A stretch of 64,000 nucleotides of DNA from a virus (IMGVR_UViG_3300022220_000003:1-64000); one strand, 5' to 3'. Shown: positions 17,809-45,018, numbered from the stretch's first letter. Numbers and translations: made by a program. Notes: generated by a model not told the origin, from the sequence alone.

Positions 17809-18066
17809 TCAGGCCGCCCGATAATCGTCGTATTCGATCCCTAGGCGCAACATTCGTTTGTACAACCCCCCGCGGTTGCAGCCGAGCTCGAAGGCGGCGG
17901 CCCGGATCGATCCGTCGTGACGTTTGAGCGAGGCCGTGATCAGCTTGGCCTCGAGATCCTCGAGCTTTTGGTCCAGGACACCCTTTTCGGCGGGCCGGGT
18001 GCCTTGGTGGTTGGGCGAGACCCCCTTTTTGCGCCTGGCCTTTGCTTTCTTGCGCTTGATTGCCAT
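17809..18066 (-). CDS. Stand-alone Fis-type HTH (HTH_8) protein 1
   Basis: LEAKLITASLKRHDGSIRAAAFELGCNRGGLYKRM; GAGGAGG RBS. Confidence 0.8.
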   Translation of the reverse strand: MAIKRKKAKARRKKGVSPNHQGTRPAEKGVLDQKLEDLEAKLITASLKRHDGSIRAAAFELGCNRGGLYKRMLRLGIEYDDYRAA

Positions 18067-18432
18067 GTTGGCCTCCTCTTGCGTCGCTGCTGATGTCTCT
18101 AATATAGCCATGTCCACACCTCGATCAACGGTTTTGGAGTCAGAGTTCCTTGCGCTATACTAAGCCCATGTGTAGTTGTATCGACATTGACGGGGACCGT
18201 GCGGCGGCCCTGGTCCTGTGGGATTTTGACCGGTACTTGGCCGAGCAGCTCGACGCGGGCGAGCTCACCGAGGCCGAGCTCCGGACCCTCGAGAGGATTC
18301 GCGAGCAGCTCCACCGGTTGGTGACGGATGCCAACGGGGCGGAGCTTGCGGCGTGACCTTTGGTGGTGCGTTTGGCACATGGTTATATTGTAACCATGTA
18401 CACTCAGTGCGCAACCCCTAAAAGGATCTTTT

Positions 18433-23312: not shown

Positions 23313-23857
23313 GTACACCCTATAGACATGCCACCACGGTGTACGCAAGGGTTGACGGGATCTAGTTGTTGCGGTAGGGGGTGCGTGAAACTTCACCGAA
23401 TGGGGTTTTGGTGGCCTCGGCGGAGCACCGACGGCAACGCCGGGGCCACTTCCACAACAAAACTTGCTCGCGTTTCGAGAGCTCCCTCGAGGGATGCGGC
23501 CCGGCGGTTGCGGTTGGCTCGGCGGAGGGTACGCAATTGTTTAGGACTGAGGATCTCCTAGCCCTGGCGCTCGAAGCGGCGATCCCGCTACACGTGGCCG
23601 AGCTCGAGCGGCTCCCCGAGGATACCCGGATCCGGATCGCAAGGCTCGCGGGCGAGGTGTTGGCGTGCCACGGGGATGTTTTGCAGTTTCGCAGCCCCGC
23701 CAAACGCAAGCGCAAACCGGGGAGCGAGAGCAAATCAACGGCCGAGGTGTTCAACACCGTGGCCCGAGGTCTCGCCGCGGCTCAGACCCTTGGCCACGAT
23801 ATCGAGCACGTGTTGCGGGAGTTGCGCAAAGGCGCGCGAGCGCCTATATAATAAGGT

Positions 23858-23873
23858 TGCAAGTTACGTGCCT
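23858..23873 (-). promoter_or_regulatory. sigma54-type promoter, class II
   Basis: AGGCACGTAACTTGCA followed by ACCTTATTAT; near-identical copy at 26409-26424. Confidence 0.55.
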
Positions 23874-24388
23874 ACTGAGTAGACAACACTAAGAGGTTAG
23901 AATGCGTGATCAATTCCCAACAGTCAAAGACGTGGCGAAAGCCGACCACGTTACCCTTGCGCGGTGGTCTCGGTTCCTACCGAGCCCGCGAGACTCCGAG
24001 GAGGTGGCGGCGATCAACCTCATGGCGGAGCGATTCGCCGAGCTTGGAGGGATGACCTCCGAGGTCTCAAAAAAGATCGGGTGGAGCGAAAAAGGGGGTT
24101 GACTACTAAGTGGGCATGGTTATAATATAATCAAGAGGAGGCCAACACACAAACAAAGCACGGCAGCTAGGGGGGCGCCCCCGAGGAGAAGGGGGGGATC
24201 TGCGCCTAAAATTGGTCTAACCAATACAAGGGGGCAGCCTTCGGCGGGGTGGGCCGGGGGCGGGAGCTCGCCGCGGGCAAGGTAAAAAGCGGCTCGCCGC
24301 ACCGGTGCCCTAGGCGCTCGAAGGTGCCACCAATAGCGGCGGAGCCACGCGACCATTCTATTGAGCCTCATGGCGGGGCTCTAACCTA

Positions 24389-24982
24389 TCACATGGACGT
24401 ATACAAGCCCGTGGCCTCCTCGATCAGTGGGCGGAGCTGATCCCAATAGATCCCCTTGTGATCGGCGACCTCGGTGATCCGGTAGCCCGGGGCTCGGCCG
24501 ATTTTGAGGATCCGCAGATTGTACAGGTCCGCGCCTTGATCGAGCTCGATCATGATGGTGTTGGCTTTGGCCGAGCCTCGGATCCGAAACTGCAAGCCGT
24601 TGCCGAGGTCCAAGAGGTCCTTGGCCCCGAGCATAAACAAGGCGCCCTTGCCGAGCTGCGCAATGATGGTTTGGGCGATCTGAGGGTCGTTGGTCTTGGT
24701 GGTGATCATGGCGTTGTCCTTACCCGAGCGGGGGCAATTCGAGCTCGGCCTCGAGATTGAATACGTAGTAGGCATGACACGAGACAAGATCCTCAAAGTA
24801 GCAGAACAAAACTTGTGTAGTTTTCGGTTGAGCTCGTTGATCTCGGCCCAAATCTCGGACTTGCGGGGGTTACCAGGGCCACACAAGGGCGTACGGGGTA
24901 GGCGGTCCCACTCTTCAAAAAGCTCCTCGAGCCGGGCGTTGATTTCGTCGCGTGTCATGTCTTTGTCCTTGTTCGTGGTCAT
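24389..24982 (-). CDS. Leaderless ORF from cassette A-left; probably two genes in frame (second start at 24709)
   Basis: ATG abuts the promoter palindrome; internal AAGGA RBS plus ATG at 24709; a 56-bp inverted duplicate lies in the junction. Confidence 0.55.
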   Translation of the reverse strand: MTTNKDKDMTRDEINARLEELFEEWDRLPRTPLCGPGNPRKSEIWAEINELNRKLHKFCSATLRILSRVMPTTYSISRPSSNCPRSGKDNAMITTKTNDPQIAQTIIAQLGKGALFMLGAKDLLDLGNGLQFRIRGSAKANTIMIELDQGADLYNLRILKIGRAPGYRITEVADHKGIYWDQLRPLIEEATGLYTSM

Positions 24983-25332
24983 GCATACTTAGTATGCAAC
25001 ACCGATGCCAGCTTGCCCCCACCGCAAAACCGCGTTAGACTAGGGATCCGAGCGATGGCTCGGGTTTAAATTATGACATCAATGTCATAGCAAACTGGTA
25101 AAAAGCACTTGAACCTAAGCAAACCAAGCACTTACGCTATGACATTGATGTCATATTAAATACATCAAATCACAGGTTTTGCTAACGATTGCAGACGCTT
25201 AGAACTATGACACAAATGTCATAGGTAATCGGTGTTTTTCGGGTTTGACCCCTACAGTTGAGAGCTAACCCCTTGATCTTTGGTTGCGGCGGGGTCTAAA
25301 AACCTGGCATTGGTGTTGCATACTAAGTATGC
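24983..25332. promoter_or_regulatory. Bidirectional sigma54 enhancer cassette A (inverted relative to B-D)
   Basis: Boxes TGGCATCGGTGTTGCA (-, 24995-25010) and TGGCATTGGTGTTGCA (+, 25305-25320); palindromes at 25071, 25137, 25205; IHF-like site 25266-25278. Confidence 0.8.
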
Positions 25333-25359
25333 ATAACCCAAACACGAGAGGCTGAGGCC

Positions 25360-25614
25360 ATGTCACAACAACGTTTCAATCCCTTGCACTTCGGATTCAA
25401 TTGGACCTCGGACGGTTGGTATGATTTTGATCATACCTCGGCCCACAAGGCAGCTCGGGCAGCTCGTGACACCGAGGCCCGCCGCTTGCGCAAGGCTGGC
25501 CACAAGGTTCGTTGTTGGACCACCAGCGGCCAGTTGGTGAGCCAGGGCGGGATCGGCTCAGGCAAGCCCCACATTGAGTTGATCGTTAGCGTTTACGGGT
25601 TGACCGTGAGCTAA
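25360..25614 (+). CDS. Hypothetical early protein
   Basis: First gene after A-right, GAGG RBS. Confidence 0.6.
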   Translation: MSQQRFNPLHFGFNWTSDGWYDFDHTSAHKAARAARDTEARRLRKAGHKVRCWTTSGQLVSQGGIGSGKPHIELIVSVYGLTVS

Positions 25615-25696
25615 GCCACGAGCTCGCCAAGCTCGGCCCCCGAGAGGGGGCCAGGGGCCCGCCTAGTGCGGGCCTTTGGCGTTAGGAGGCCCGATC

Positions 25697-26287
25697 ATGG
25701 CAACAGTTACAATCAACACCGAGGGCGTTCTGATCACCGTATCGAGCCCGTATCACCCAGACTTTCCGGCCCGAGCTCGCAAGCTCGGCGGGAGTTGGGA
25801 CGATGCCCGCAAGCTCTGGTCTTTTGACCCTCGAGACCTCGAGCGGGTGCGGGAGCTCTGCCGGGATATTTTTGGCACCGATGGCACCGAGGGCGAGGGC
25901 GAGCTCGTGACGCTGCGGGTGGTGTTCGCCGAGACTGCGGACACCTACGATCGGACCTGCTACGTGGCCGGGCGCCAAGTGGCCCGATCCTGGGGTCGGG
26001 ATGGCGGGGCGGTGCTTGGCGAGGGCGTGGTGGTGCTCGAGGGTGGGTTTGGGTCCGGTGGCAGCCGCAAGAACCCAACCTTGACCGTGCGAGCCGGTAC
26101 CGTGATCGAGGTGCGAGACGTGCCCGCGGGCGCCAAACGCGAGGCCGATCTCGGTGGCGAGGTGGAGCTCCTCGGCGATGCCACGGCGTCAACCGATTTT
26201 CGGTTGCTCACGGCCGAGCGGGCCCGGTTGCTCGAGAGGCTCGCCGAGGTCGAGGAGGCCCTTGCCCAATGGGCGGGCACCGAGTAG
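25697..26287 (+). CDS. Conserved phage hypothetical protein
   Basis: AGGAGG RBS; SPYHPDF..ARKLGGSWD pattern. Confidence 0.65.
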   Translation: MATVTINTEGVLITVSSPYHPDFPARARKLGGSWDDARKLWSFDPRDLERVRELCRDIFGTDGTEGEGELVTLRVVFAETADTYDRTCYVAGRQVARSWGRDGGAVLGEGVVVLEGGFGSGGSRKNPTLTVRAGTVIEVRDVPAGAKREADLGGEVELLGDATASTDFRLLTAERARLLERLAEVEEALAQWAGTE

Positions 26288-26298
26288 GGTGACCCCAT

Positions 26299-26367
26299 GA
26301 GGCGGGGGCCCGTGGGGGCCGGCGGTTTCGCAACCGCGCCGAGCGGGTTCGAATCCCGCCTGCCTCT
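26299..26367 (+). tRNA. Non-canonical tRNA-like element
   Basis: 7-bp acceptor stem GAGGCGG/CTGCCTC; perfect T arm GCGGG-TTCGAAT-CCCGC; 5-bp D stem; 6-nt anticodon loop; no encoded CCA. Confidence 0.55.
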
Positions 26368-26408
26368 CAACGCGTCGCATTATCCACACAAGACACATAT
26401 AATAAGGT

Positions 26409-26424
26409 TGCAAGTTGCGTGCCT
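26409..26424 (-). promoter_or_regulatory. sigma54-type promoter, class II
   Basis: AGGCACGCAACTTGCA followed by ACCTTATTAT. Confidence 0.55.
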
Positions 26425-26477
26425 ACTAAGTGAACATGTCTATTGACAGTGGACCGGCGGCGGGGTAGGGCGGTGGG

Positions 26478-26657
26478 ATGTCAACCGAGGCCGAGCTCCT
26501 ACAGACGTACAAAAACCTAATCACCGAGATCGCCGAGCTCCAACAGGCGTACCAGATCCTAGGAGTACAGATCGCCGAGGTCACCGATCGGTTTCACGAG
26601 GCCTTGGCCCTCCAACGGGTGGTGCTTGAAAAGAAGGCGGGTGACGACCATGAGTGA
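26478..26657 (+). CDS. Small coiled-coil protein, 59 aa (not in the ORF track)
   Basis: MSTEAELLQTYKNLITEIAELQQ...; follows TTGACA-17-TAGGGC. Confidence 0.5.
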   Translation: MSTEAELLQTYKNLITEIAELQQAYQILGVQIAEVTDRFHEALALQRVVLEKKAGDDHE

Positions 26658-26948
26658 CCACGCGAGCCAACGGATCGCCGAGCTCCGAGACAAGCTAGAC
26701 AAGATCGAGGTGGGCCTCGCGGGGATCCGGGGAGACGTGGCTAGGCTCGAGCGGTCCAAGCGGACACCACCCCGGGCGGTGATGGATCGAATAGCGGATC
26801 TTTGCCTCAGGGTGACGGTGGGAGCTCTCGAGGTGCGCCGAGACGTGGTCAAATCCGATCGTTTCGAGGCCACCTCCAAGGAACAAAAAAAGCGGACCGA
26901 GCCCCACCGCGGCCGGGCCCCGTAGGGCCCGAGCCGCTCGGCGGTGGG

Positions 26949-27383
26949 TCACGCGGCCACCTTGCCAGCACAGACCGGCCCGAGCCCGGACTCGATTGAG
27001 TTGGGATCGGTGAGCTCGCGGCCACAGCGGCCACACTCGCCAGCATGCCAAAACTCGACGCGGTGGGCCTGCTCGGAGGCCTCGGCGAGCTTGGCCAGGT
27101 ACCACGCGAAGGCCTTGGCGCTCGGGGCCTCGGCGGTGACGCGGCTCTTGGCGGTGTGCCTGAGGGTGTGCGGCTTGTCCGGAAAGATGCAACCCATATA
27201 GCTATAGTCGTGTTCATTGTCGGAGCCCGTCAGCACCGAAACGAACCAAGGGGCCGTTGTTTTGTTCCCGCGTGCCTTGGTTACCTGGTAGGTGTACCGG
27301 GTGCCCGTGGCCGTGCTCACCAGGGTGAATTTTGCGCGGCCGGCAAACAAAAACGCTACGATGGCAGTGATAGCAGTGATCAT
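26949..27383 (-). CDS. DUF6011-like zinc-finger protein
   Basis: C-terminal CGRCGRELTDPNSIESGLGPVC. Confidence 0.7.
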   Translation of the reverse strand: MITAITAIVAFLFAGRAKFTLVSTATGTRYTYQVTKARGNKTTAPWFVSVLTGSDNEHDYSYMGCIFPDKPHTLRHTAKSRVTAEAPSAKAFAWYLAKLAEASEQAHRVEFWHAGECGRCGRELTDPNSIESGLGPVCAGKVAA

Positions 27384-27485
27384 GTTGGTGTCCTGTGGGT
27401 TGGGGTTTTTGTTCTCGATCCGGCCACCCTCTCGGCCCGTGTGGTTTGCCCTCGCCGCCCCGTGTGCTGCCTGGCTGCGTTGACT

Positions 27486-27857
27486 GCATACTAAGTATGC
27501 ACGTTGGGTGCCAAGTTTTTGGGGTCGTTTGGGGCGGGCGGGGAGCTCTCGCCACGAGAAAACAAGGGGTTAGACGCGGCCGGCGGCCTTGGTGGAGTGT
27601 GGGCCCAATACCTCTATGACTTAGCTGTCATAGTTGTACTTGGTTGATATTGCTAGAGAAACCGCTGATTTTGCGTATTTACTATGACAGATATGTCATA
27701 GGCTACTTGCTTGTTTTTGTTGAGCAAAGGCCGTTTTGAGTGGTTTGCTATGACTTAGATGTCATAGGTACCGGTTGGGGGTTTGGGGCTCGGGCCCGTT
27801 CTATCGCGGGTTTGCGGGCGGTGCAAGGTTGGCACGGTGGGTGCATACTAAGTATAC
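27486..27857. promoter_or_regulatory. Bidirectional sigma54 enhancer cassette B
   Basis: Boxes TGGCACCCAACGTGCA (-, 27498-27513) and TGGCACGGTGGGTGCA (+, 27830-27845); palindromes at 27614, 27682, 27748; IHF-like site 27560-27572. Confidence 0.8.
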
Positions 27858-27962
27858 AGTTGCGGCGGCCGGGGAGCACACGAGGACGCACCAACAACCG
27901 ACACGGGCCGAGAGCGGGGCCGGATCGAGACGCAAAACCAACCCCAACCCAAGGACACCAAC

Positions 27963-28250
27963 ATGACCAACAACAACACCAACACCGTAGCCCTTCACGT
28001 TGCCACCGAGGCCGAGCTCGATTCTCGGACGGTCGAGACGCGTTGGAGCGACCCAAGGACAGCCCGATGGCTAGGAGCTAGCCAAAAATGGCGGTTTGAG
28101 GGTGGTGACGCGATAGTGGTTTGCGGCCACTATCCCGAGGCGTGGGCCGTGGTTAGAGTCGAAGACCGGATCAAGGTCTGTGACATCAGCCGCGGCGGTG
28201 GTGTGGTCGGAGCGTTTGGTTATTTCGACCTCAGGGCCGAGGTAGCCTAG
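27963..28250 (+). CDS. Hypothetical early protein
   Basis: Follows B-right and the conserved leader; AAGGA RBS. Confidence 0.6.
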   Translation: MTNNNTNTVALHVATEAELDSRTVETRWSDPRTARWLGASQKWRFEGGDAIVVCGHYPEAWAVVRVEDRIKVCDISRGGGVVGAFGYFDLRAEVA

Positions 28251-28314
28251 CCTCAACCACCGCGGAGCTCGGCCCCACTTCGGGGCCGGGCGGCGGCGGG
28301 GCTCGGTCCGGTTT

Positions 28315-28767
28315 TTTGTTGCCCGGTGGGTGTATGCGGGGGTAGGGGGAAGCATGCAATACAGTGATCAAGCAATCGAGCGGGCGGCCAAGGCTGCTCA
28401 CGAGATCCACACCATCTATTGCGCGGCCCTCGGCGATCATTCGCATCTACCTTGGGAGGGCACGCCCACCGAGATCCGTGATTCGGTAAAGGCGGGGGTG
28501 CGAGCAGCTCTCGAGGGATTATCCCCCGAGGTGCTACACCAGCGGTGGGTTGACTACAAATTTGCTCAAGGGTGGACGTGGGGCCCTCGCAAATCCCTCG
28601 AGGATAAGACACACCCCAACCTTGTGCCATGGTCACAGCTCCCGCAATGGGATCAGGCCAAGGACGTCATTTTTGACGCGGTGGTACGGGGTGTGTTTGA
28701 TCACCATTGCTTGATCACTGTATCGCATGCTTCCTCCTACCCCCGCATACACCCACCGGGCAACAAA
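28315..28767. repeat. 62-bp inverted repeat pair (28315-28376 / 28706-28767)
   Basis: 60 of 62 positions match as reverse complement; the arms bracket the RyR-like coding region. Confidence 0.9.
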
Positions 28768-28788
28768 GGAAATTGCGGTGGAGCCTGA
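28354..28788 (+). CDS. RyR-domain-like protein
   Basis: HQRWVDYKFAQGWTWGPRKSLEDKTHPNLVPWSQLP..DQAKD. Confidence 0.75.
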   Translation: MQYSDQAIERAAKAAHEIHTIYCAALGDHSHLPWEGTPTEIRDSVKAGVRAALEGLSPEVLHQRWVDYKFAQGWTWGPRKSLEDKTHPNLVPWSQLPQWDQAKDVIFDAVVRGVFDHHCLITVSHASSYPRIHPPGNKGNCGGA

Positions 28789-29026
28789 CCTGCAAATGGG
28801 CCTAGCAATGCTGATCTCGCGGCTCGAGGCTATCCGCGAGGAGCTCGCGGCCCACACGATCGCCATGCTCACCCGCGACGCCGCACACGAGGGGGTGGTG
28901 GCTCAGGATCTACACAAACGAGTAGCCAACCGCTACCTCGATCACGTCAAACGTGCCACCGAGCTCCACAAGTCCAAACCCTCAACCAAGGCCATACCAC
29001 CGGTGATCCATCGTCGAAAGCCATAG
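28778..29026 (+). CDS. Hypothetical protein, paralogue of 30681-30959
   Basis: Shared PDL...IRE.LA..T.A.L...YL..V pattern. Confidence 0.5.
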   Translation: MEPDLQMGLAMLISRLEAIREELAAHTIAMLTRDAAHEGVVAQDLHKRVANRYLDHVKRATELHKSKPSTKAIPPVIHRRKP

Positions 29027-29235
29027 GGCCCGTTTATGGCGCTGCGGGGTTGGGGTTGGGGTGCATACTAGGGCGACAATCAACGAGGGGCGTTTTGGGG
29101 GCCCTATGGGCCCCTAGGGGGCTCTTGAGCAGCTCACACCCAGAAACGAACCTAACAAACCACCTCGTTTGTGGCTTCAAGGCGGTATGTCGGGGTGCTT
29201 ACTCGGCGCATTGTTTGCTCCTTGTTGCGTGTTAT

Positions 29236-29605
29236 GCATACTTAGTATGCAACACCGATGCTTAGTTTTGAGGTCATGCCGGTATCATACCGGTATAGTA
29301 TCAACCTGATATCAATAGGTTAGAGCCCGGCGGCGAGCTCGGAGGCGTGTAGGCCCAATACCTCTATGACTTAGCTGTCATAGTTGTACTTGCCTGATAT
29401 TGCTTAGGAAACCGCTGATTTTACGTATTTACTATGACATGGCTGTCATAGCGTAAGGGTTTGTTTTTGTTTGTGAACGAGGATATTTGTCGATACGCTA
29501 TGACAACCGAGTCATAGTCCACGGACCACCCGCAGGCTATAACCTTATTTTATCGCGGGTTTGCGGCGGCGGCAAGTTGGCATTGGTGTTGCATACTAAG
29601 TATGC
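29236..29605. promoter_or_regulatory. Bidirectional sigma54 enhancer cassette C (left -24 box mutated)
   Basis: Left AAGCATCGGTGTTGCA (-, 29248-29263); right TGGCATTGGTGTTGCA (+, 29578-29593); palindromes at 29364, 29432, 29498; perfect IHF site TATCAATAGGTTA at 29310-29322. Confidence 0.8.
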
Positions 29606-29707
29606 AGTTAACGCAGTCGAGCAGCACATGGGACGGCGTTGGCAACCGACACGGGCCGAGAGCGGGGCCGGACTGAGACAACCAACCCAAACCCAAAGGA
29701 CACCACC

Positions 29708-30058
29708 ATGTTGACTGCTACCATCACCCGAAAAGCCGAAGTCGCCTACTTGTTCACCCTGTTGGACGGCTGTCGAGCCTCGGATCCTGCGTTGTTTCGG
29801 CGTTTGCGGCGAGCCTATCGAGTACTCAAGGAGATCGACCTCGCTAACAACGCCGTGCTTTGCGAGGTGGAATATGAGAGCGAGGACGTGCCGCAAACCG
29901 TGATTCGGTTTCGGGGCACCTACTTTGCGGCCAACGGAGTCGGGAAGTTTTCAAAGCAGACCGTAATCCATGCGGGCGGCGACCACTTCGCGATCTACCT
30001 CTCGGACCGGCCGGGGCGTTACTGTGGCCTCGAAGGCTACACGCTACCCCTGTACTAG
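29708..30058 (+). CDS. Hypothetical early protein, paralogue of 36763-37134
   Basis: Shared LRR...LKE.D and VEYESEDVP.T. Confidence 0.65.
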   Translation: MLTATITRKAEVAYLFTLLDGCRASDPALFRRLRRAYRVLKEIDLANNAVLCEVEYESEDVPQTVIRFRGTYFAANGVGKFSKQTVIHAGGDHFAIYLSDRPGRYCGLEGYTLPLY

Positions 30059-30216
30059 GCACCGCGGGTTGCTCGGCCCCACCTCGGGGCCGGGCGGCGG
30101 GGGTGCCACGAGGCGCAGCGGGGCTCGGTCCTGTTTTTTGTTCCTTGCGGGGCTTGCCTACCTTGGGATCATGTTTACCACGTTGACACCTTGAGGGCGC
30201 TAGGGTAGGGGGTGGT

Positions 30217-30959
30217 ATGAGCGACCTGGAAAAGTTGATAACCGCCAAGGAAACCTACGATTCGACACCTACAAATCTCGACCTCGAGGACGCGTTGGAA
30301 TCCGTACTAGGCACCCTCGAGCTGGTGGCCCGGGCTCAGGTCGCGGCGGCGTTGATCCAAGCCAACCCGAGTTTTGTCGAGGCTCCTAAACTGTTGGCCA
30401 ACACCGTCAACAAGATCACGCTAGCGCTGGCGTTCAACCAAGGGGAGCAAACGGAGCAAACGAACAATGTCGACCCTTGATAGTTCGGTGTGGGCCGTGA
30501 GCCGGGCCCTCGAGAAGCGCAACGAAATCGAGCTGCGTCGGGTCAAGGCCCTCGAGTTTCGAAACCAGATCGAGATCTTGCGGGCGGTGGTGGAGTATTC
30601 CAACGGCGCGGGTGGCCTTGGGTCAAAAGACCTCGCCGATCGGGCGTTCGAGATCCACCAAATGCTCAAGGAGCGGCCCTATGCCAGATCCTAAAGCCCC
30701 CTCGGTGGCCCTGCTCGAGGAACAACGCCGCCTAAACCCCGATCTCGCGGCCATCTATCGCCACCTCCTTGGGATCCGTGAGGACCTCGCCGTGATCACC
30801 ATGGCGATTCTATCCGAGCGGGTGATCGCCGCCGGCGTACCCCTCGAGGACGTGCCCGTGAGGACCGCTAAGCTCTATTCGACCTACCTCCACAATGTGC
30901 ACACCATCCGAGAGCGCCCCGAGCCCCCCACCGGGGGCCGGGGGCCCGCCGGGCCCTAG
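30217..30959 (+). other. Three small coupled hypothetical genes
   Basis: 30217-30480, 30467-30694 and 30681-30959, after TTGACA-17-TAGGGG. Confidence 0.55.
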
Positions 30960-31231
30960 CGGTAGGGTAGGCCGCGGGCCTTATTGATGGCCCGAGTTGC
31001 GAGCCTACGCAATTGGGATCCTAGGTGATAATAGTTGTTGACCGATCCGGCCTCGCGATACCGCTGGCCCCGATCGGAGATCCGCAACACGAGGGCGCCG
31101 GTGGTGTGCACATAAATGTGCCCGTCAAAGGCCTCAACAACGCGATATTCTTGGCCCCTCGCGTTGAACGTGGCCGAGGCGGTAAAGAGGGGAAGTTGAG
31201 CAAAGTTGGTGTCTGTGTTCGTTGTGGTCAT
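30956..31231 (-). CDS. Leaderless hypothetical early protein (D-left)
   Basis: ATG directly follows GCATACTAAGTATGC. Confidence 0.65.
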   Translation of the reverse strand: MTTTNTDTNFAQLPLFTASATFNARGQEYRVVEAFDGHIYVHTTGALVLRISDRGQRYREAGSVNNYYHLGSQLRRLATRAINKARGLPYR

Positions 31232-31612
31232 GCATACTTAGTATGCAACACCGGTGCCAGGTTTTCTGAGGTATTGGGGCCGTATTGGGGTGATACCGGT
31301 ATGATACCACGCCTAAAATCAAGCACTTGCGGCCGGCGGGAGAGCTCGGAGGTGTGTGGGTGCAATACCTCTATGACTTAGGTGTCATAGTTGTACTTGG
31401 TTGATATTACTAGGGAAACCGGTGATTTTACGTATTTACTATGACATTAAAGTCATAGGCTACTTGGTTGTTTTTGTTGAGCAAAGGGCGTTTTCGGTGG
31501 TTTGCTATGACATAAATGTCAGGGTTGGTTATTGGGCCGTTGGCTTCGAGCCTAGTTTATCGGGTGTTTGCGGGCCTGGCAAGTTGGCACCGGTGTTGCA
31601 TACTAAGTATGC
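31232..31612. promoter_or_regulatory. Bidirectional sigma54 enhancer cassette D
   Basis: TGGCACCGGTGTTGCA at both ends (31244-31259 -, 31585-31600 +); palindromes at 31371, 31439 and 31505 (last imperfect); perfect IHF site AATCAAGCACTTG at 31317-31329. Confidence 0.85.
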
Positions 31613-32263
31613 ATGACCAACACGAACAAAACCACCGCCACCTACGAGAGCGCCCGGCAACTAGTCGCCACCCTCCGCGGGGAGCTCGAGCAGCTCACCT
31701 TGTTGCCCTCCGACACCCTCGAGATCTGCGATCAGTTGGTTGCTCGTGTCGAGCTCGCCAAGGCGCGGGCGGATAGCGCGCCTAGCGATATCGTGAAGTT
31801 TTCGCGGCCCGAGCCCGAGAGCGTGCTCGAGCGTGAAAAGGCGGCGGCCCGCCGGGCGGGTGCGGCGGCGGTGGTTGAGGACGCCAAGGCCAAGGCCGAG
31901 TTTCTGGCCAAGACTGCAGTCAAGGGCCCTCGCAACCCCGTGCACTTGGTTGAGGTCGAGGAGGGCCACCACGTTGACGTGATCCCCCGCAAGTCGATTC
32001 GTCTGCACGGCTTGGACCGCAACCGCCGCAACGGCCCGGTGGCCTACGATCGGACCTTCGAGATCGGCGACTCGGCCGAATACGACAGCTATAACACCTC
32101 ATTTATCGGCCGGATCGTGGCCATCGGCGCCAAGACCGTGACGATTGACACCAAGATGGGTGAGCGGCGGCGATTGAAGCTCGAGCAGTTCTCGTGGCGC
32201 AACCGCCACTTTGACCTTGAGACCGTGGCCCGCCGCAACGCCGAGGAAAGTTATTACATCTAA
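31613..32263 (+). CDS. Leaderless hypothetical early protein (D-right)
   Basis: 216 aa; ATG abuts the palindrome. Confidence 0.7.
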   Translation: MTNTNKTTATYESARQLVATLRGELEQLTLLPSDTLEICDQLVARVELAKARADSAPSDIVKFSRPEPESVLEREKAAARRAGAAAVVEDAKAKAEFLAKTAVKGPRNPVHLVEVEEGHHVDVIPRKSIRLHGLDRNRRNGPVAYDRTFEIGDSAEYDSYNTSFIGRIVAIGAKTVTIDTKMGERRRLKLEQFSWRNRHFDLETVARRNAEESYYI

Positions 32264-32279
32264 CCAAGGAGCCAACACC

Positions 32280-33103
32280 ATGACCACCAACGTACGCACC
32301 GAGCGCAAGTTTGAGACCTACTCCCGCGGGGCCGAGCTCGTGAGAGCTATCAAGGCCATGTGGGAGTGCAACGAAGGTGACCGCGGGCGGCCCGATGGTA
32401 ACACTCGGATCAACACTCGTATTGAGGCCCTAGCGGCCGAATACGATTTGACCTCGGTTGAGTGGATCTATTGGGCCCGCATCGCCATGGGGTTAACGAA
32501 ACCCAATCAACTTTACCTTTGCCGCGGCCTCCCAACACACTGGGTTGCCACCGACGCCAACAATCAGCCTTGGCTGTTTCCGGCGGTGGCGGGTGGGTGG
32601 AAGCACCGAACGCGGTTCGTTAGCCACCTCGAGGCCTTGATCGAGACCGACAACCTTTACGCCACCGGTACGGGGTGGTGCAAGTCTGAGGAGGGTTCAC
32701 CATGACCACCAAAACCACAATGTGGGAAGTCTACAACCCGAGCTCGGGGCACAGTCTAGGCCATTACAAGGCCGAGAGCTCCGAGGAGGCGATCGAGGCG
32801 TGCTGCCGGGCGGCGGGGTACGGGTCGGAGGCGGAGGCCTCCGCGGCCACCGGCGGGCGGGGGGTGCTCCGAGCTCTCGAGGTTGAGGAGGTCGATCTCA
32901 ACACCGACAACGGATCCAAAACGCGGGCATACCTAGACGAATCAGGGTTTGCGACCTTCGAACATGCCAACGCCGCGGGCGATCGGATGATCGTCAAGGC
33001 CAAGGGCAACTGCCTCGAGATTGTGCCCGCGTCCGGTTGTTGTCTCAAATCCAATGTGGAGCACGCCGGCCGGGCCGTCTATATTTGGGTGCAACCATGT
33101 TGA
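32280..33103 (+). other. Two hypothetical genes (32280-32705, 32702-33103)
   Basis: AAGGAG and GGAGG RBS; ATGA coupling. Confidence 0.55.
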
Positions 33104-33372
33104 CCATGTTCGTTGTTGGGTGGCGCTGCGGGTGCGGTTGCGAGACCTTGCACCGCATGTATCTGAAAACCTCACAGGAGGCCTTGGCGCTAACGGTGCA
33201 GCTCCGCGATAGCACCGCCACCGAGACCTGGGTGTGGCGAATGCGACTCCCGCGGCGCAAGGAGGCGATCCTAGTGGCGCTCAACTACTGCTGTGGGGCT
33301 CGATATCGAGCTCGAGGGGGAGCTCGAGCAGCTCGCGCACCTAGTGCGATCCGATTGGGAGGCCGAGGCGGA

Positions 33373-33486
33373 GGCCGAGGAGCCGACGCACGGCGAGGGC
33401 CCGCCCGGTGGCCGAGGAGCCGACGCACGGCGAGGGCCCGCCCGGAGGCCGAGGAGCCGACGCACGGCGAGGGCCCGCCCGGTGGC
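33373..33486. repeat. 3 x 37-bp tandem repeat
   Basis: GGCCGAGGAGCCGACGCACGGCGAGGGCCCGCCCGGW starting at 33373, 33410 and 33447. Confidence 0.9.
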
Positions 33487-33505
33487 GAGTTTCATTGAGT
33501 GGCCT

Positions 33506-33521
33506 TGGCCCGCGGATTGCA
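33506..33521 (+). promoter_or_regulatory. sigma54-type promoter of the Fis-type HTH gene
   Basis: TGGCCCGCGGATTGCA; same box-to-ATG distance as the leaderless cassette genes. Confidence 0.55.
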
Positions 33522-33533
33522 AGGAGATCGGAT

Positions 33534-33776
33534 ATGACGAAAAAGGTATCCAAAACCACCCGAAATGGCCATTTACTTGGACGGTTAGTCCGTGACGCGG
33601 AAAAGGCCATTATTATCCAATACATAGCCAAGCATCGCGGAAACAAGACCCACGCGGCCGAGGCCCTCGGGGTGACGCACCGGCATTTGCAGCGGCGGTG
33701 CGTGGCGCTCGGTATCGAGGGGGCGGACCTCGAGGGCGGCAACGTGGGTGTTGTAATCGTGGGCGGGCTTGTGTAG
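33534..33776 (+). CDS. Stand-alone Fis-type HTH (HTH_8) protein 2
   Basis: AEKAIIIQYIAKHRGNKTHAAEALGVTHRHLQRR. Confidence 0.8.
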   Translation: MTKKVSKTTRNGHLLGRLVRDAEKAIIIQYIAKHRGNKTHAAEALGVTHRHLQRRCVALGIEGADLEGGNVGVVIVGGLV

Positions 33777-34411
33777 GCTCGGGCCTACTCCGGATTTTCG
33801 GTTTTCGCGCAAAGCCCCCGGCTCTAGCAGGCCGGGGGCGCCTATGCTAGGGTGGAGCCGGCCCCCGCGTCTCAATTCATGGTGATCAACCGCCCGCGGT
33901 AGCCTAAGCCATTGCCAACGAACGTTGATCGGGGTGTGGGGGCCACCAAATAGGTCAGGCATTTTCTCTTGTGAAAGTCCATTGATTTCGGTGTAGTGTG
34001 GCGCGCTATGTCGATAGACGATCAGCAATTCATACGGATTCCTGAGCCCCATATCGGCTGGGATACGGGGCTACTGCTGCGGGTGGTGGCTGGGGAGCTC
34101 CGCGGGGCGGAGCTCCGCCGCGAGGTGGATTATATCCACGCGGTGGAGCGGGTCTCGGTGGACATTTCGCAGCAACTAGTGAGGACGGCGCAAGGGTCGG
34201 TGAGGTGGGCGTTGATCGATCTCGTGGTCTCGGGCCTACGACGGCGTTTGCTCGAGCTCTCGAGCCGGCCGGCGGGGCCGTTGCCTCCTCGGGGTTGGCC
34301 TTGCGCTTAAATGAAAAAGTCCAATGATTCCAAGAGGTAACGCCATTTGGGGGTGCTGGTGGGGGTTTGGGCTTAAATAATGTGGGCGGTCTAGTTTGGC
34401 GCGGAGCCCGG

Positions 34412-34792
34412 TTAATCCTGTTGGTTGCGGTCGCGGTCTCGGTCTAGGTCGCGGTCGCGGTCGCGGTCGTTTGGTCTCGATTTGTTCCGTATCCGGGCCA
34501 GGAGTGGTCCGGTCTCGTTTTCGGGCGGGGTTTCGAGCGGTGGGAGGTGGTCTCGTATGCCCGGGCGCCTTGGGCCACTGTAGCGGCCGGTATTCATGCG
34601 TTCAAATGGCCAAATCGAGTAGGCCTGGCCCGTGTCGGACTCGGCGAGGTCTGGGGTTACTTTCTCGAGGGTGTGGGGCCTCGTTTTGCACTGGCATACC
34701 GGGCAACGGATCTTGGTGGTCACGAGGTGGCACCGGTGGCACGTAGGGGCCGTGAAATAGGATCCGATCGTGGTGTTGACGGGGCTCGGCAT
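34412..34792 (-). CDS. Hypothetical zinc-ribbon protein with RD-repeat tail
   Basis: CHRC..CPVC motifs; DRDRDRDLDRDRDR tail. Confidence 0.4.
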   Translation of the reverse strand: MPSPVNTTIGSYFTAPTCHRCHLVTTKIRCPVCQCKTRPHTLEKVTPDLAESDTGQAYSIWPFERMNTGRYSGPRRPGIRDHLPPLETPPENETGPLLARIRNKSRPNDRDRDRDLDRDRDRNQQD

Positions 34793-35469
34793 ACTGCACC
34801 TCGAGGGGTTGATTGGGGGCAGCTTATCACGGGCTCGGGTGGAGGTTTACTGGCATGGTGTGACGTCACGATGTGTCAGGTTGTTGTGTATGCATACACG
34901 ATGCCAAAAAATAATGTTCTGGGTTATTGGGGGGTTAGGTGGAGGGTATGGCGGGCTTTGTCAGGCTGTTTGGATGATGTGGTGCGTCATTGAGGTGGGG
35001 TTGGCGGTTTGGGGTTATTTAGGTGGGTTGTTGTCGATTTGGTTGATTGAAAAAGTGGTGTGTTTGTAGGGGTTTACAAGGGGGGCTTGACGTGACTTGT
35101 CAACGTTTTTCGAGGCGTAACGATTACAGGTAGTTAGCTACTTATGTAAGTGGTTATGGAAGTGGTGGGATGTGTCGAGTTGTGACAGGTGGCGGTGTAA
35201 GTCGGTGTAATCGTTGCGGTATTGGTATGGGAGGGCGTGGGGGGTGATTGGGTGTCTCGATTTGTGGACAGTGTTGCGGTTCCGAGTGTCTTGATTTGTG
35301 GACAGGGGTGGCGAAATTTCGCCAGGGGGGTTTTGGGGGTTTTGAGGGGGTGGGGTGAGGGATTGAGTTAGGGGGTGGGTTTGCGGCGGTTTTTGGGGCC
35401 TTAGGGGGCTTGTCACGTGGTGGTGTAGGGTGGTGGGGAGGTGTTTCGGTTGGTGGGCACGGCGGGAGA

Positions 35470-35551
35470 TGTGCACCATTTTGGAGCAGTTGGTGAGGGG
35501 TGTGCACCATTTTGGAGCAGGTGGGGTGAAATGTGCACCATTTTGGAGCAG
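35470..35551. promoter_or_regulatory. Triple NtrC-type enhancer box array
   Basis: TGTGCACCATTTTGGAGCAG at 35470, 35501 and 35532 (31-bp period); core is one mismatch from TGCACCA-N3-TGGTGCA. Confidence 0.6.
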
Positions 35552-35843
35552 TTACAGGTTGGTGAGGTTGAGGGTATAAGGTTTTGTTATAGGTGGGTAG
35601 TGTTTTTGGGCGGTTTACTTATGGGTTTTGGGGGGTTGGGGGTTGTTTGTGGGCGGCCCGCGGCGGGGTGGACGCGACCGGCCTCGGGCCGGGCCTGGTG
35701 CTGCGGTGTAGGCCCCGCCCGCACCTCCGCACCGCTCCGCCCCTAAGCCCCGTCCTGTGCAGCTCTCGAAGAGCTCCCCGGCCTCGATCTCGGTTCCCAG
35801 TGGTTCGTCCCTATGGGAGCTCGAGCTCGGCGAGCCGTGCGAC

Positions 35844-36191
35844 CTAACGAGGGCCAACACCGTACACACGGCGGTCGAGGGCGATCCGCAGCTCGGCATG
35901 GACGCGTTTGGCAACCTCAAACTTGGTGGCCGCGTCGTTGAGCTCGGCGTTAGTCTCGCCGCCCATGAACATGGCCCACAAGCTACCAACGCCCCCGGTG
36001 GCGTCTGCGATAGCTCGCTTACGCTCGGCCGCCTCCTCAACCTCGGCCGCGGCCTCGGCGATGGCCTTGGCGAGCTCGGCACGATAGATAAGCTCGGCGC
36101 TACGGTCGGTGCCCGCGGCGGCCCGGTAGGCGGCCTGGGTGTTCTCGACGACGGTGGCGAGGGCGGCGGCGGTGGTAATAGTCTTGGTCAT
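35844..36191 (-). CDS. Ala-rich helical hypothetical protein
   Basis: GAGGA RBS; MTKTITTAAALAT... Confidence 0.55.
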   Translation of the reverse strand: MTKTITTAAALATVVENTQAAYRAAAGTDRSAELIYRAELAKAIAEAAAEVEEAAERKRAIADATGGVGSLWAMFMGGETNAELNDAATKFEVAKRVHAELRIALDRRVYGVGPR

Positions 36192-36202
36192 GGTCTCGAT
36201 CC

Positions 36203-36334
36203 TCAGAGCACCACCGCGGCGGCGGCCTCGTTGCGGGCGGCGAGCTTGGGGCGGCGGGTGCCCTCGCCACCGACAACCAAGACCACAATCGCGACCACCG
36301 CGATAACTGCCTTGATTGTCTTGTTGCGTGTCAT
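36203..36334 (-). CDS. Leaderless 43-aa single-TM peptide (E-left; not in the ORF track)
   Basis: MTRNKTIKAVIAVVAIVVLVVGGEG...; ATG abuts the palindrome. Confidence 0.55.
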   Translation of the reverse strand: MTRNKTIKAVIAVVAIVVLVVGGEGTRRPKLAARNEAAAAVVL

Positions 36335-36762
36335 GCATACTTAGTATACAACAACCGTGCCAGAGCTCGGGGGTGGCACGGCGGGTGCAACTCGAGGAGG
36401 GCGACACAATATCAAGGGGTTACGGGCCGAGAGCTCCCCGCCGAGCTCCCCGAGGGCCGTGTTTAGCGTGTAGGGCCAATACCTCTATGACTTAGGTGTC
36501 ATAGTTGAGATTAGGGGCTAACTACTCGTAATGAGGGCGAAAATGCCAATTGGTACTAGACTACTATGGCAATCATGTCATAGTTGAGGATTGGGCTAAC
36601 TGCACGTAATAGCGAAAGAATCCTAGGTTAGACCGATTTACTATGGCATCTATGTCATAGCTATGATGCTCTGCGTTATCAAGGTGATTGGCCTAAGTGC
36701 TTGATATTGTGTTGAGAGCTCCTCGCCACGGTATTGGCATCAGGGTTGCATACTAAGTATGC
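36335..36762. promoter_or_regulatory. Bidirectional sigma54 enhancer cassette E
   Basis: TGGCACGGTTGTTGTA (-, 36347-36362) and TGGCATCAGGGTTGCA (+, 36735-36750); extra inward box at 36374-36389; palindromes at 36485, 36564, 36641; perfect IHF sites at 36410-36422 and 36694-36706. Confidence 0.8.
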
Positions 36763-37134
36763 ATGAGCACAACGAGAGGAAACGAGACAATGAACGCAAT
36801 CACCACCGAGATCAAGTTTGCCAAGGCTGAGATGGCCGCGATTAACTTCCAAGGTGCAGGCCCCGAGCTTGGACGACGTTTTTGTCACCTCCGCCGGTTG
36901 GTTAAGCTGCTCAAGGAGCTCGATCGGCTCAACGGGTTGGGACTCGCCGAGCTCGTCACGGTTGAATACGAGTCCGAGGACGTCCCTAGCACATGTGTTG
37001 TTTTTTGGGCGAACACTGATGCCACGGCCGATATCGTGGGCAAACGCTCGGGCCAAGAAGTTGCGCGGCTTTCATCGCGTGAATTCTTTATCGAGCTCTC
37101 GTTGGCCCCCGGGCGTATGCCTGGTTTCTTTTAG
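36763..37134 (+). CDS. Hypothetical early protein (E-right), paralogue of 29708-30058
   Basis: VEYESEDVP motif; leaderless ATG, with an alternative RBS-led ATG at 36790. Confidence 0.65.
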   Translation: MSTTRGNETMNAITTEIKFAKAEMAAINFQGAGPELGRRFCHLRRLVKLLKELDRLNGLGLAELVTVEYESEDVPSTCVVFWANTDATADIVGKRSGQEVARLSSREFFIELSLAPGRMPGFF

Positions 37135-37450
37135 GCCAGCCAAACCCCAACGGCCGAGACTGCACAAAAGTGGCCGTTGGCCTCGGAGGGGCTCGAGGGA
37201 TCTCCAGGGGTTGCGGCGAGAGCTGCGGGCCGATCACAGGACGTCAACAGCCACTTTCCTCGAGCTCTGGCGCGGGAGCTGAGCTCGGCGAGCTCTGGGG
37301 AGGTAAGCGCGGGGGATCTTTTGTCCCACACCCCCCACTGGCAAAAAAACTGCGAAAATAGTTTTTTCCGAGGTACTGGCTCCCCCACCCACAAAACGCG
37401 ACCAAAACCCACCCCCACTTATGTATACTTAGTGTACACACCATAGGGCC

Positions 37451-37596
37451 ACCACCTGGTCACCTGGCACACCACCTGGTCGCCTGGCACACCACCTGGT
37501 CACCTGGCACACCACCTGGTCGCCTGGCACACCACCTGGTCACCTGGCACACCACCTGGTCGCCTGGCACACCACCTGGTCGCCTGGCACACCACC
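37451..37596. repeat. 7 x 20-bp tandem repeat (iteron-like)
   Basis: ACCACCTGGTCRCCTGGCAC x7 plus a partial copy. Confidence 0.9.
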
Positions 37597-37712
37597 GCCG
37601 CCACCGCCGCCTAGTCAACCTCACCGGACGATCGTGGGGCGGGCAAAAACAACAACTTTTGAAGGGAGGTCGCCAAGGGGGGCAAAAACAAGGTGCAGCG
37701 GTAAACCTAGTG

Positions 37713-44941: not shown

Positions 44942-44957
44942 TGGCACGTGCATTGCA
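44942..44957 (+). promoter_or_regulatory. sigma54-type promoter heading the replication operon (class II)
   Basis: TGGCACGTGCATTGCA, a full consensus match, followed by ACCTTATAAT as in the other class II copies. Confidence 0.65.
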
Positions 44958-45018
44958 ACCTTATAATAATCTCGCGCCGCGGTTTCCCCGCAACGCTCGA
45001 AACTGCGGGGGTGGGACC

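Follow-up and report, generated by a model that had tools for sequence, protein, structure and literature searches.

How could a phage place a block of its own small genes under sigma-54, a transcription system regarded as exclusively cellular and gated by signals? This question is raised by five homologous intergenic cassettes in the virus record IMGVR_UViG_3300022220_000003, an IMG/VR entry of 93,466 bp (estimated to be 92% complete, GC content 58.5%) that represents an uncultured tailed phage from sediment. The window analysed here is the first 64 kb of that record (positions 1-64,000). The cassettes, designated A to E, are 350-430 bp long, amount to about 1.9 kb in all, and sit in a 17-kb stretch of small genes of unknown function, with an iteron-like repeat and the replication module just downstream. 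On the evidence presented below, they are probably genuine sigma-54-type (-24/-12), enhancer-dependent promoters, for which the activator would be supplied by the host and shut-off would be exerted through a 17-bp operator. To our knowledge, phages have not been described as building whole early regulons on sigma-54.

Architecture of the cassettes

The original prediction described five intergenic units with outward-facing TGGCAY-N5-KTGCA boxes at both ends (two of the ten being deviant), three central palindromes and IHF-like WATCAA-N4-TTR sites. All five units are present, align as homologues, and are composed as follows.

Cassette A, 24983-25332: left box 24995-25010 (-), right box 25305-25320 (+); palindromes at 25072, 25138 and 25206; IHF-like site at 25266 (-), one mismatch
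Cassette B, 27486-27857: left box 27498-27513 (-), right box 27830-27845 (+); palindromes at 27615, 27683 and 27749; IHF-like site at 27560, one mismatch
Cassette C, 29236-29605: left promoter decayed, right box 29578-29593 (+); palindromes at 29365, 29433 and 29499; IHF-like site at 29310
Cassette D, 31232-31612: left box 31244-31259 (-), right box 31585-31600 (+), both perfect TGGCACCGGTGTTGCA; palindromes at 31372, 31440 and 31506 (the last with two mismatches); IHF-like site at 31317
Cassette E, 36335-36762: left box 36347-36362 (-) with a -12 element of TTGTA, right box 36735-36750 (+); palindromes at 36486, 36565 and 36642, spaced by 79 and 77 bp; IHF-like sites at 36410 (+) and 36694 (-)

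Eight of the ten ends carry a perfect box, and the two deviants are C-left, in which the -24 element reads TAAGCA and the GG is lost, and E-left, in which the -12 element is altered. With at most one mismatch, the box occurs 19 times in the window against 4.6 expected from dinucleotide shuffles of the window, against which the central palindrome and the IHF-like sites were also counted, and this count was reached in none of 100 shuffles. Nine of the ten cassette ends are among the 19 matches, all nine facing outward, and C-left is too decayed to match. In the alignment of the five cassettes, TGGCA and TGCA are invariant and the N5 spacer and the flanks are variable; the GG and GC lie exactly 10 nt apart, which is the spacing of the sigma-54 class, and the full sigma-54 consensus box is found at two of the eight perfect ends.

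The central palindrome, TATGAC-N6-GTCATA with at most two mismatches, occurs 15 times in the window against 1.0 expected, and all copies are in the cassettes, three in each, as had been claimed. The palindromes are spaced by 66-68 bp in cassettes A to D and by 77-79 bp in cassette E, and the proximal palindrome lies 72-134 bp from the GG. The IHF-like sites were likewise confirmed, both the four perfect ones (29310, 31317, 36410 and 36694) and the two with one mismatch (25266 and 27560). Perfect matches number six in the window against 0.8 expected, and eight in the whole genome, four of them within the cassettes (1.9 kb), where 0.16 would be expected. Perfect or one-mismatch sites, which are pattern matches, stand on six arms, all with a nearest palindrome-to-GG distance of more than 85 bp, and are absent from the short arms; in several other lineages, inspection by eye showed none in the short spacers either.

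The description of the cassettes as bidirectional holds for the outward boxes at both ends, with the exception of cassette C, which is effectively one-way. C-left is the only end without a gene behind it, and both its -24 GG and its ATG have been lost, as would be expected of a disused promoter under relaxed selection. Cassette A has the opposite orientation to B-D, its 72-bp arm pointing left, and cassette E has an additional inward-facing box at 36374-36389 (+).

A 17-bp palindrome and leaderless starts

Every -12 box is covered, from about -14 to +3, by a 17-bp palindrome, TGCATACTWAGTATGCA, which is present at all ten promoters with zero or one mismatch; 0.07 matches would be expected by chance even at up to three mismatches. 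In nine of the ten copies, the central base tracks the direction of transcription.

31597-31613: example copy of TGCATACTWAGTATGCA, the last A of which is the A of an ATG
24982, 25317, 27485, 27842, 29235, 29590, 31231, 36334 and 36747: starts of the other copies

At five promoters (A-left, D-left, D-right, E-left and E-right), the palindrome ends in an A that doubles as the first base of a start codon, the ATG of a coding open reading frame (ORF), and the C of the -12 GC precedes this A by 14 nt. With such a distance, a start of the sigma-54 type would yield an mRNA that is leaderless or has a 2-nt leader. The palindrome is confined to this phage lineage; a search of viral contigs with the palindrome alone gave single, chance-like matches only. 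Judged by sequence, it is probably a phage-specific operator at which a phage repressor would shut the regulon off, and two stand-alone HTH_8 proteins, described below, are possibly the repressors. Related half-sites, ATACTAAG and CCTACTNAGT, are found on other promoter-like elements at 18146, 23869, 26420 and 37422.

Recurrence in unrelated phage lineages

The sole viral relative, G001 (78.8 kb), is collinear with the phage on both sides and is missing exactly the part corresponding to window 19.6-37.4 kb; as it has no cassette region, it is uninformative on cassette conservation. Sequence collections were therefore scanned for two perfect palindromes 45-65 bp apart, for which well under one chance match is expected by our rough estimate. 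Viral contigs gave three matches, two of which, G002 and G003, have sigma-54-type boxes just downstream. G002, whose PolA and helicase are about 34% identical to those of the phage, has the same enhancer-box layout and no activator gene, and the complete 43-kb genome G003 has the same layout and no recognisable transcription factor, sigma factor or AAA+ activator.

Metagenome contigs gave 87 heterogeneous loci. A strict box, defined as TGGCA[CT]-N5-NTGC[ATC] within 400 bp of the array, points away from the array in 21 of them, which range in GC content from 34 to 73% and make up at least a dozen unrelated sequence groups. Strict boxes facing outward number 23 versus 5 facing inward, and a reversed-pattern control gave 0 in 298 kb. 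The neighbours of the box-bearing loci are phage early or replication genes (for example VapE, DUF932, Prim-Pol, GP88 and L5 gp82), among which no enhancer-binding protein or HTH_8 protein was found.

The coupling of box and translation start recurs as well. In 21 of 66 distinct boxes (32%, with a peak at 14), an ORF of at least 50 aa begins with an ATG at C+13 to C+17, against 2.5% of random positions, and in 16 of the 66 an ATG is found 14-15 nt past the -12 C. No conserved -10 hexamer was seen between the -12 element and the ATG across lineages. At positions that the search did not impose, 50 distinct boxes from other contigs show a T before the box in 26 cases, a purine after it in 41, a T at -15 in 22 and A or T at -10 in 44. 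The published sigma-54 consensus, reported by Barrios and colleagues in 1999 to have a pyrimidine before TGGCAC, a purine after it, a T at -15 and A or T after the GC, is matched at these free positions.

Measured between the proximal palindrome and the GG, enhancer-to-promoter distances group into the classes 52-53, 61-64, 72-74, 92, 112-113, 123, 134 and 144 bp. These are phased with the DNA helix (Rayleigh R 0.73 at 10.2 bp, p about 2e-4, with lineages de-duplicated and the statistic maximised over periods of 9-12 bp), and a spacing of about 67 bp between sites is likewise found repeatedly among lineages. The three palindromes of a cassette, at phased distances, thus correspond to the dyad-symmetric upstream sites of sigma-54 enhancers, which lie at about 50-150 bp and depend on the face of the helix at short range.

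The palindrome was also met in other settings. Marine contigs with a GC content of about 65% have tandem arrays of TATGAC-N6-GTCATA with a 36-bp period and no sigma-54 boxes (L036, L095, L029, L032 and others), and in many contigs of one sample the same pattern is the core of a repeated intergenic element, TATGACAGGGTTGTCATA, again with no sigma-54 boxes (L025, L028, L058 and L104). Among four matches of the pattern in bacterial genomes, two are TetR operators and one consists of iteron-like repeats inside an ORF. Cassette-type sites are absent from Marinobacter phage PS3, which among cultured phages is the closest to one cassette-bearing contig, and when cultured phages were searched with a 31-nt probe for the commonest palindrome, all matches were at chance level. 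A 33-kb contig with a GC content of 74%, L013 (G005), which bears the label of a gammaproteobacterial metagenome-assembled genome, has a similar enhancer and a leaderless start of the TGCATACTA type. Its label or binning is doubtful, because all genomes of its GTDB phylum are of about 1 Mb; the metagenome-assembled genome that holds it and 400 genomes of its phylum gave only chance single matches of the palindrome pattern.

Candidate trans-acting factors

The absence of a GAFTGA AAA+ activator, originally noted for the window, extends to the whole 93-kb record, in a six-frame search of which neither Sigma54_activat (PF00158) nor Sigma54_DBD was found. No AAA+ activator with a Sigma54_activat domain was found in any of the four phage genomes G000 (this phage), G001, G002 and the complete G003, and a host enhancer-binding protein is therefore the default candidate for the ATPase; to judge from gene content, the activator is most likely such a protein. 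Two stand-alone HTH_8 (Fis/NtrC-type) proteins are encoded in the record.

33534-33776 (+): HTH_8 protein of 80 aa, inside the block of genes behind D-right
17809-18066 (-): second HTH_8 protein, outside the cassette region, conserved in relative G001

A box with one mismatch, 33506-33521, precedes the first of these genes and places its ATG at C+14; a Shine-Dalgarno reading of the same bases is equally possible. The encoded protein is a candidate binder of the operator or of the enhancer site. Six homologues of equal length (P0001-P0006), 66-90% identical, occur on other metagenome contigs, and no form fused to an AAA+ domain was found among longer relatives, a negative that is weak evidence. 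No related loci were recovered when viral contigs were searched with a cassette gene and the HTH_8 family, and the palindrome motif is not mentioned in the text of the Desulfovibrio regulome paper.

Genes behind the promoters and other elements of the record

B-left, B-right and C-right have in common a leader of about 105 nt, with 83% mean column identity in an alignment of promoter, leader and gene start. It contains two predicted hairpins with a few compensatory changes, ends in AAGGACACCAACATG, and has no match in Rfam. Because of the conserved leader, the start of the C-right gene was moved to the ATG at 29708. The genes of B-left and C-right were considered as paralogues, and this was rejected: homology is limited to the leaders, and the genes behind them are unrelated.

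27384-27487 (-), 27856-27962 (+) and 29604-29707 (+): copies of the conserved leader
24389-24982 (-): A-left first gene, leaderless, 197 aa, phrog_9437, function unknown
25360-25614 (+): A-right first gene, with a 27-nt leader and a Shine-Dalgarno sequence
26949-27383 (-): B-left first gene, DUF6011, behind the conserved leader
27963-28250 (+): B-right first gene, behind the conserved leader
29708-30058 (+): C-right first gene, start reassigned, behind the conserved leader
30956-31231 (-): D-left first gene, leaderless, 91 aa
31613-32263 (+): D-right first gene, leaderless, 216 aa, heading a + strand block to about 34310
35844-36334 (-): E-left operon, a leaderless 43-aa ORF (36203-36334) followed by a 115-aa ORF (35844-36191)
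36763-37134 (+): E-right first gene, leaderless, 123 aa

A homologue of the A-left gene (phrog_9437) adjoins a similar cassette in contig L056. Elsewhere in the record, head genes (terminase, portal, MuF-like and protease-fusion), a tail spike, and replication genes (family A DNA polymerase, helicase, PD-(D/E)XK nuclease and a DUF5906 primase-helicase) were recognised. Near-identical DNA is present in three sediment runs from 2018, and parts of the phage or of relatives in four runs (two sediment runs from 2018, one estuary run from 2023 and one sediment run from 2025). A blastn search with the phage gave no match among cultured phages, and protein searches gave no close cultured relative.

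Several further elements lie in and around the cassette region. ARAGORN predicts a tRNA-like gene at 26299-26368, its two-base anticodon undetermined, and a perfect DnaA box, TTATCCACA, follows at 26381-26389. Three 37-nt direct repeats, 95-100% identical, occupy 33369-33486 within the D-right block. Upstream of the primase-helicase, at 37430-37616 (L009 1-190), is a tandem array with a 20-nt unit, comprising about nine copies of CACCACCTGGTCRCCTGGCA, which are probably origin iterons; relative G001 has a 30-nt array at the matching position, where its contig stops. A degenerate palindrome of the 17-bp operator type, at 37422, immediately precedes the array.

Other promoter-like elements were also seen in the window. 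A second conserved element, TATWATAAGGTTGCAA-N4-CGTGCC(T/A), occurs at 23846-23885, 26397-26436 and 44942-44970, with a near-perfect sigma-54 box inside; a degenerate operator palindrome follows at two sites. The box is antisense at two sites, where the + strand offers TATAAT, and at one of these it points into a terminator-like hairpin; the box at 44942 is in sense orientation and conserved in relative G001. About 850 bp of G/T-rich, apparently non-coding DNA (34800-35650, GC skew +0.31) contain three TGCACC-N5-GGAGCA boxes with a phase of 31 bp (35470-35551), one base off the NtrC consensus, together with a TTGAC-N7-GTCAA palindrome at 35088 and a duplicated GATTTGTGGACAG motif; a sigma-54-type box at 34891-34906 (-) has its own TGTATGCATACA palindrome. 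At 18120-18170, divergent from the second HTH_8 gene, a sigma-70-like -10 element, TATACT, stands 6 nt before a leaderless ATG, and this promoter has the ATACTAAG core in common with the 17-bp palindrome.

Comparison with known systems

Divergent sigma-54 promoter pairs with a shared enhancer are known in bacteria, as in zraP/zraSR with ZraR and nifH/nifJ with NifA. Like these pairs, the cassettes have two outward -24/-12 promoters around common activator sites, an arrangement that involves looping. Unlike them, they are found in a phage, in five copies, with three sites about 67 bp apart and a 17-bp palindrome that covers -14 to +3; leaderless starts occur, and no gene for an activator is nearby. 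The OR and OL regions of lambda also have three palindromes between divergent promoters; however, the lambda operators are adjacent to one another and overlap the -35 and -10 elements, whereas the cassette sites are 66-79 bp apart and well upstream, where an activator would be positioned, with a separate palindrome over the promoter. In E. coli norVW, NorR binds three dyad-symmetric sites, at which three dimers have been proposed to give one hexamer, and an IHF site is positioned between the enhancer and the sigma-54 promoter (PMC2831303). The cassettes resemble this enhancer in their three dyad sites, their IHF-like sites being matches to a pattern.

Proposed mechanism and alternative explanations

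In the mechanism that we propose, three activator dimers would occupy the central TATGACA-N4-TGTCATA sites of a cassette. The DNA between enhancer and box would then loop, helped by an IHF-like bend on the longer arms and in a direct, phase-dependent manner on the short arms (about 72 bp), and the bound activator would open the sigma-54 holoenzyme waiting at the TGGCAY-N5-KTGCA boxes of one end or both, so that the cassettes would employ the RNA polymerase of the host. Transcription would start about 12-14 nt past the -12 GC, giving leaderless or 2-nt-leader mRNAs from five promoters and mRNAs with the conserved leader of about 105 nt from three. What we infer from sequence patterns is that RpoN is used, that IHF binds, that the 17-bp palindrome serves as an operator and what kind of protein the activator is. 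All computational tests that were run agree with the predicted sigma-54 enhancer, namely the invariance of the boxes, the decay of C-left, the absence of PF00158 and sigma-54 matches from the record, the recurrence in other lineages, the ATG coupling and the helical phasing.

Several observations weigh against it. The cassette copies are paralogues, and counts within the phage are therefore not independent. E-left has no -12 C and yet keeps a leaderless gene, and the sigma-54-like box of the TATWATAAGGTTGCAA element is antisense, a senseless orientation, at two of its three sites. The cassette palindromes, TGAC-N6-GTCA over about 150 bp, are opposite in polarity to the NorR sites, GTCA-N3-TGAC (GT-N7-AC) within 66 bp, and are not of the NorR type; no enhancer-binding protein is known to us to bind TGACA-N4-TGTCA, and none was found in the literature searched. 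The same palindrome occurs elsewhere in TetR operators of Firmicutes, in the 36-bp tandem arrays and in the repeated element. A single palindrome kept across GC contents of 34-73% would be unexpected of a host factor, and no less so of a phage factor that evolves fast. That the host has RpoN and a matching activator is a presumption, and no RNA run was found to contain the phage.

It is unlikely, though far from negligible, that the boxes are promoters read otherwise than by host sigma-54 with a host AAA+ activator. A phage factor on the palindromes might open sigma-54 holoenzyme without ATP hydrolysis, or might redirect core polymerase to a -24/-12-like element. Such a factor would suit the fixed geometry, with about 67 bp between sites, and the four phage genomes in which no activator gene was found, and the retention of the palindrome over the whole range of GC content fits a travelling phage factor better than many host proteins, which is why we keep a phage-borne, non-canonical activator under consideration. 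However, no protein family is common to the loci at the level of BLAST or Pfam, and HTH_8 proteins occur only in the G000/G001 lineage; the first of these points is weakened by the shortness of the contigs, because a shared gene could lie beyond their ends. We also know of no natural factor that opens sigma-54 holoenzyme independently of an activator, which weighs against this alternative. Also unlikely is a related reading, that of a widespread, undescribed phage early-gene module that combines a conserved, phased three-site enhancer (TATGACA-N4-TGTCATA) and sigma-54-type promoters for leaderless mRNAs with an activator that is not a recognisable AAA+ enhancer-binding protein.

That the cassettes are mainly recombination or mobility modules, which shuffle gene blocks in the manner of PeSL elements or repeated linkers and act as promoters only secondarily, is improbable. 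They are five dispersed homologous copies, one of them inverted (A), and one leader stands before three unrelated genes; G001 breaks at both borders of the region, and a single X7 sediment contig of depth 2 joins 27482 to 29238, skipping exactly the 1755-bp B-to-C module. This joint, thin evidence from one contig of low depth, fits a cassette-mediated exchange of modules. The invariant GG/GC, the ATG coupling and the helical phasing in unrelated single-copy loci would nevertheless be left unexplained, and shuffling is compatible with sigma-54-type promoters rather than an alternative to them. The same contig is the weak support for the analogy that the original prediction drew with the PeSL elements of T4-type phages. 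As in those elements, promoter-bearing intergenic modules are repeated among small early genes and may be shuffled, but sigma-70 early promoters and stem-loops belong to PeSL, and the cassettes instead have sigma-54-type boxes, an enhancer and an operator over 350-430 bp.

Least probable of all, and very improbable in our view, is that the palindrome triplets are repressor operators or replication or partition iterons, with boxes that are incidental or that represent a sigma-70 -35-like TTGGCA. TTGGCA does resemble a -35 element and the CATACT within the 17-bp palindrome a -10 element, a sigma-70-like TATACTAAG leaderless promoter is present at 18146, and elsewhere the same palindrome is a TetR operator and probably an iteron. 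However, the palindromes lie 50-140 bp upstream of the boxes with no overlap, and it is GG-N10-GC, not a -10-like hexamer, that is conserved across lineages. A sigma-70 reading of the boxes was itself examined and rejected, because the spacing between TTGGCA and CATACT is too short, the alternative -10 would put the start inside the gene, and no -10 is conserved across lineages.

Implications for phage biology

The components of the cassettes, interpreted as sigma-54-type promoters, are those of the textbook; what is new is that a phage has them in a repeated, two-way, operator-capped and leaderless version, that many uncultured phage lineages share the theme, and that no activator gene is recognisable. 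The arrangement had been called unusual for a phage, and no description of it was found in the literature searched; in metagenomes, however, it is widespread. Many phages may thus run genes through the sigma-54 machinery of their hosts. If this is true, many uncultured phages link their early or accessory genes, through an ATP-dependent activator, to a signal of the host, by means of a compact and portable two-way enhancer coupled to a leaderless translation start. The need for a host with rpoN and the right activator would provide a handle for matching phages to hosts, and the cassettes would constitute a natural set of orthogonal promoter parts that are tightly off or on. A clear search would also be opened for the protein that reads TATGACA-N4-TGTCATA. 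Should that activator prove to be carried by the phages, it would be the first case in nature of sigma-54 holoenzyme being opened by something other than a canonical AAA+ enhancer-binding protein.

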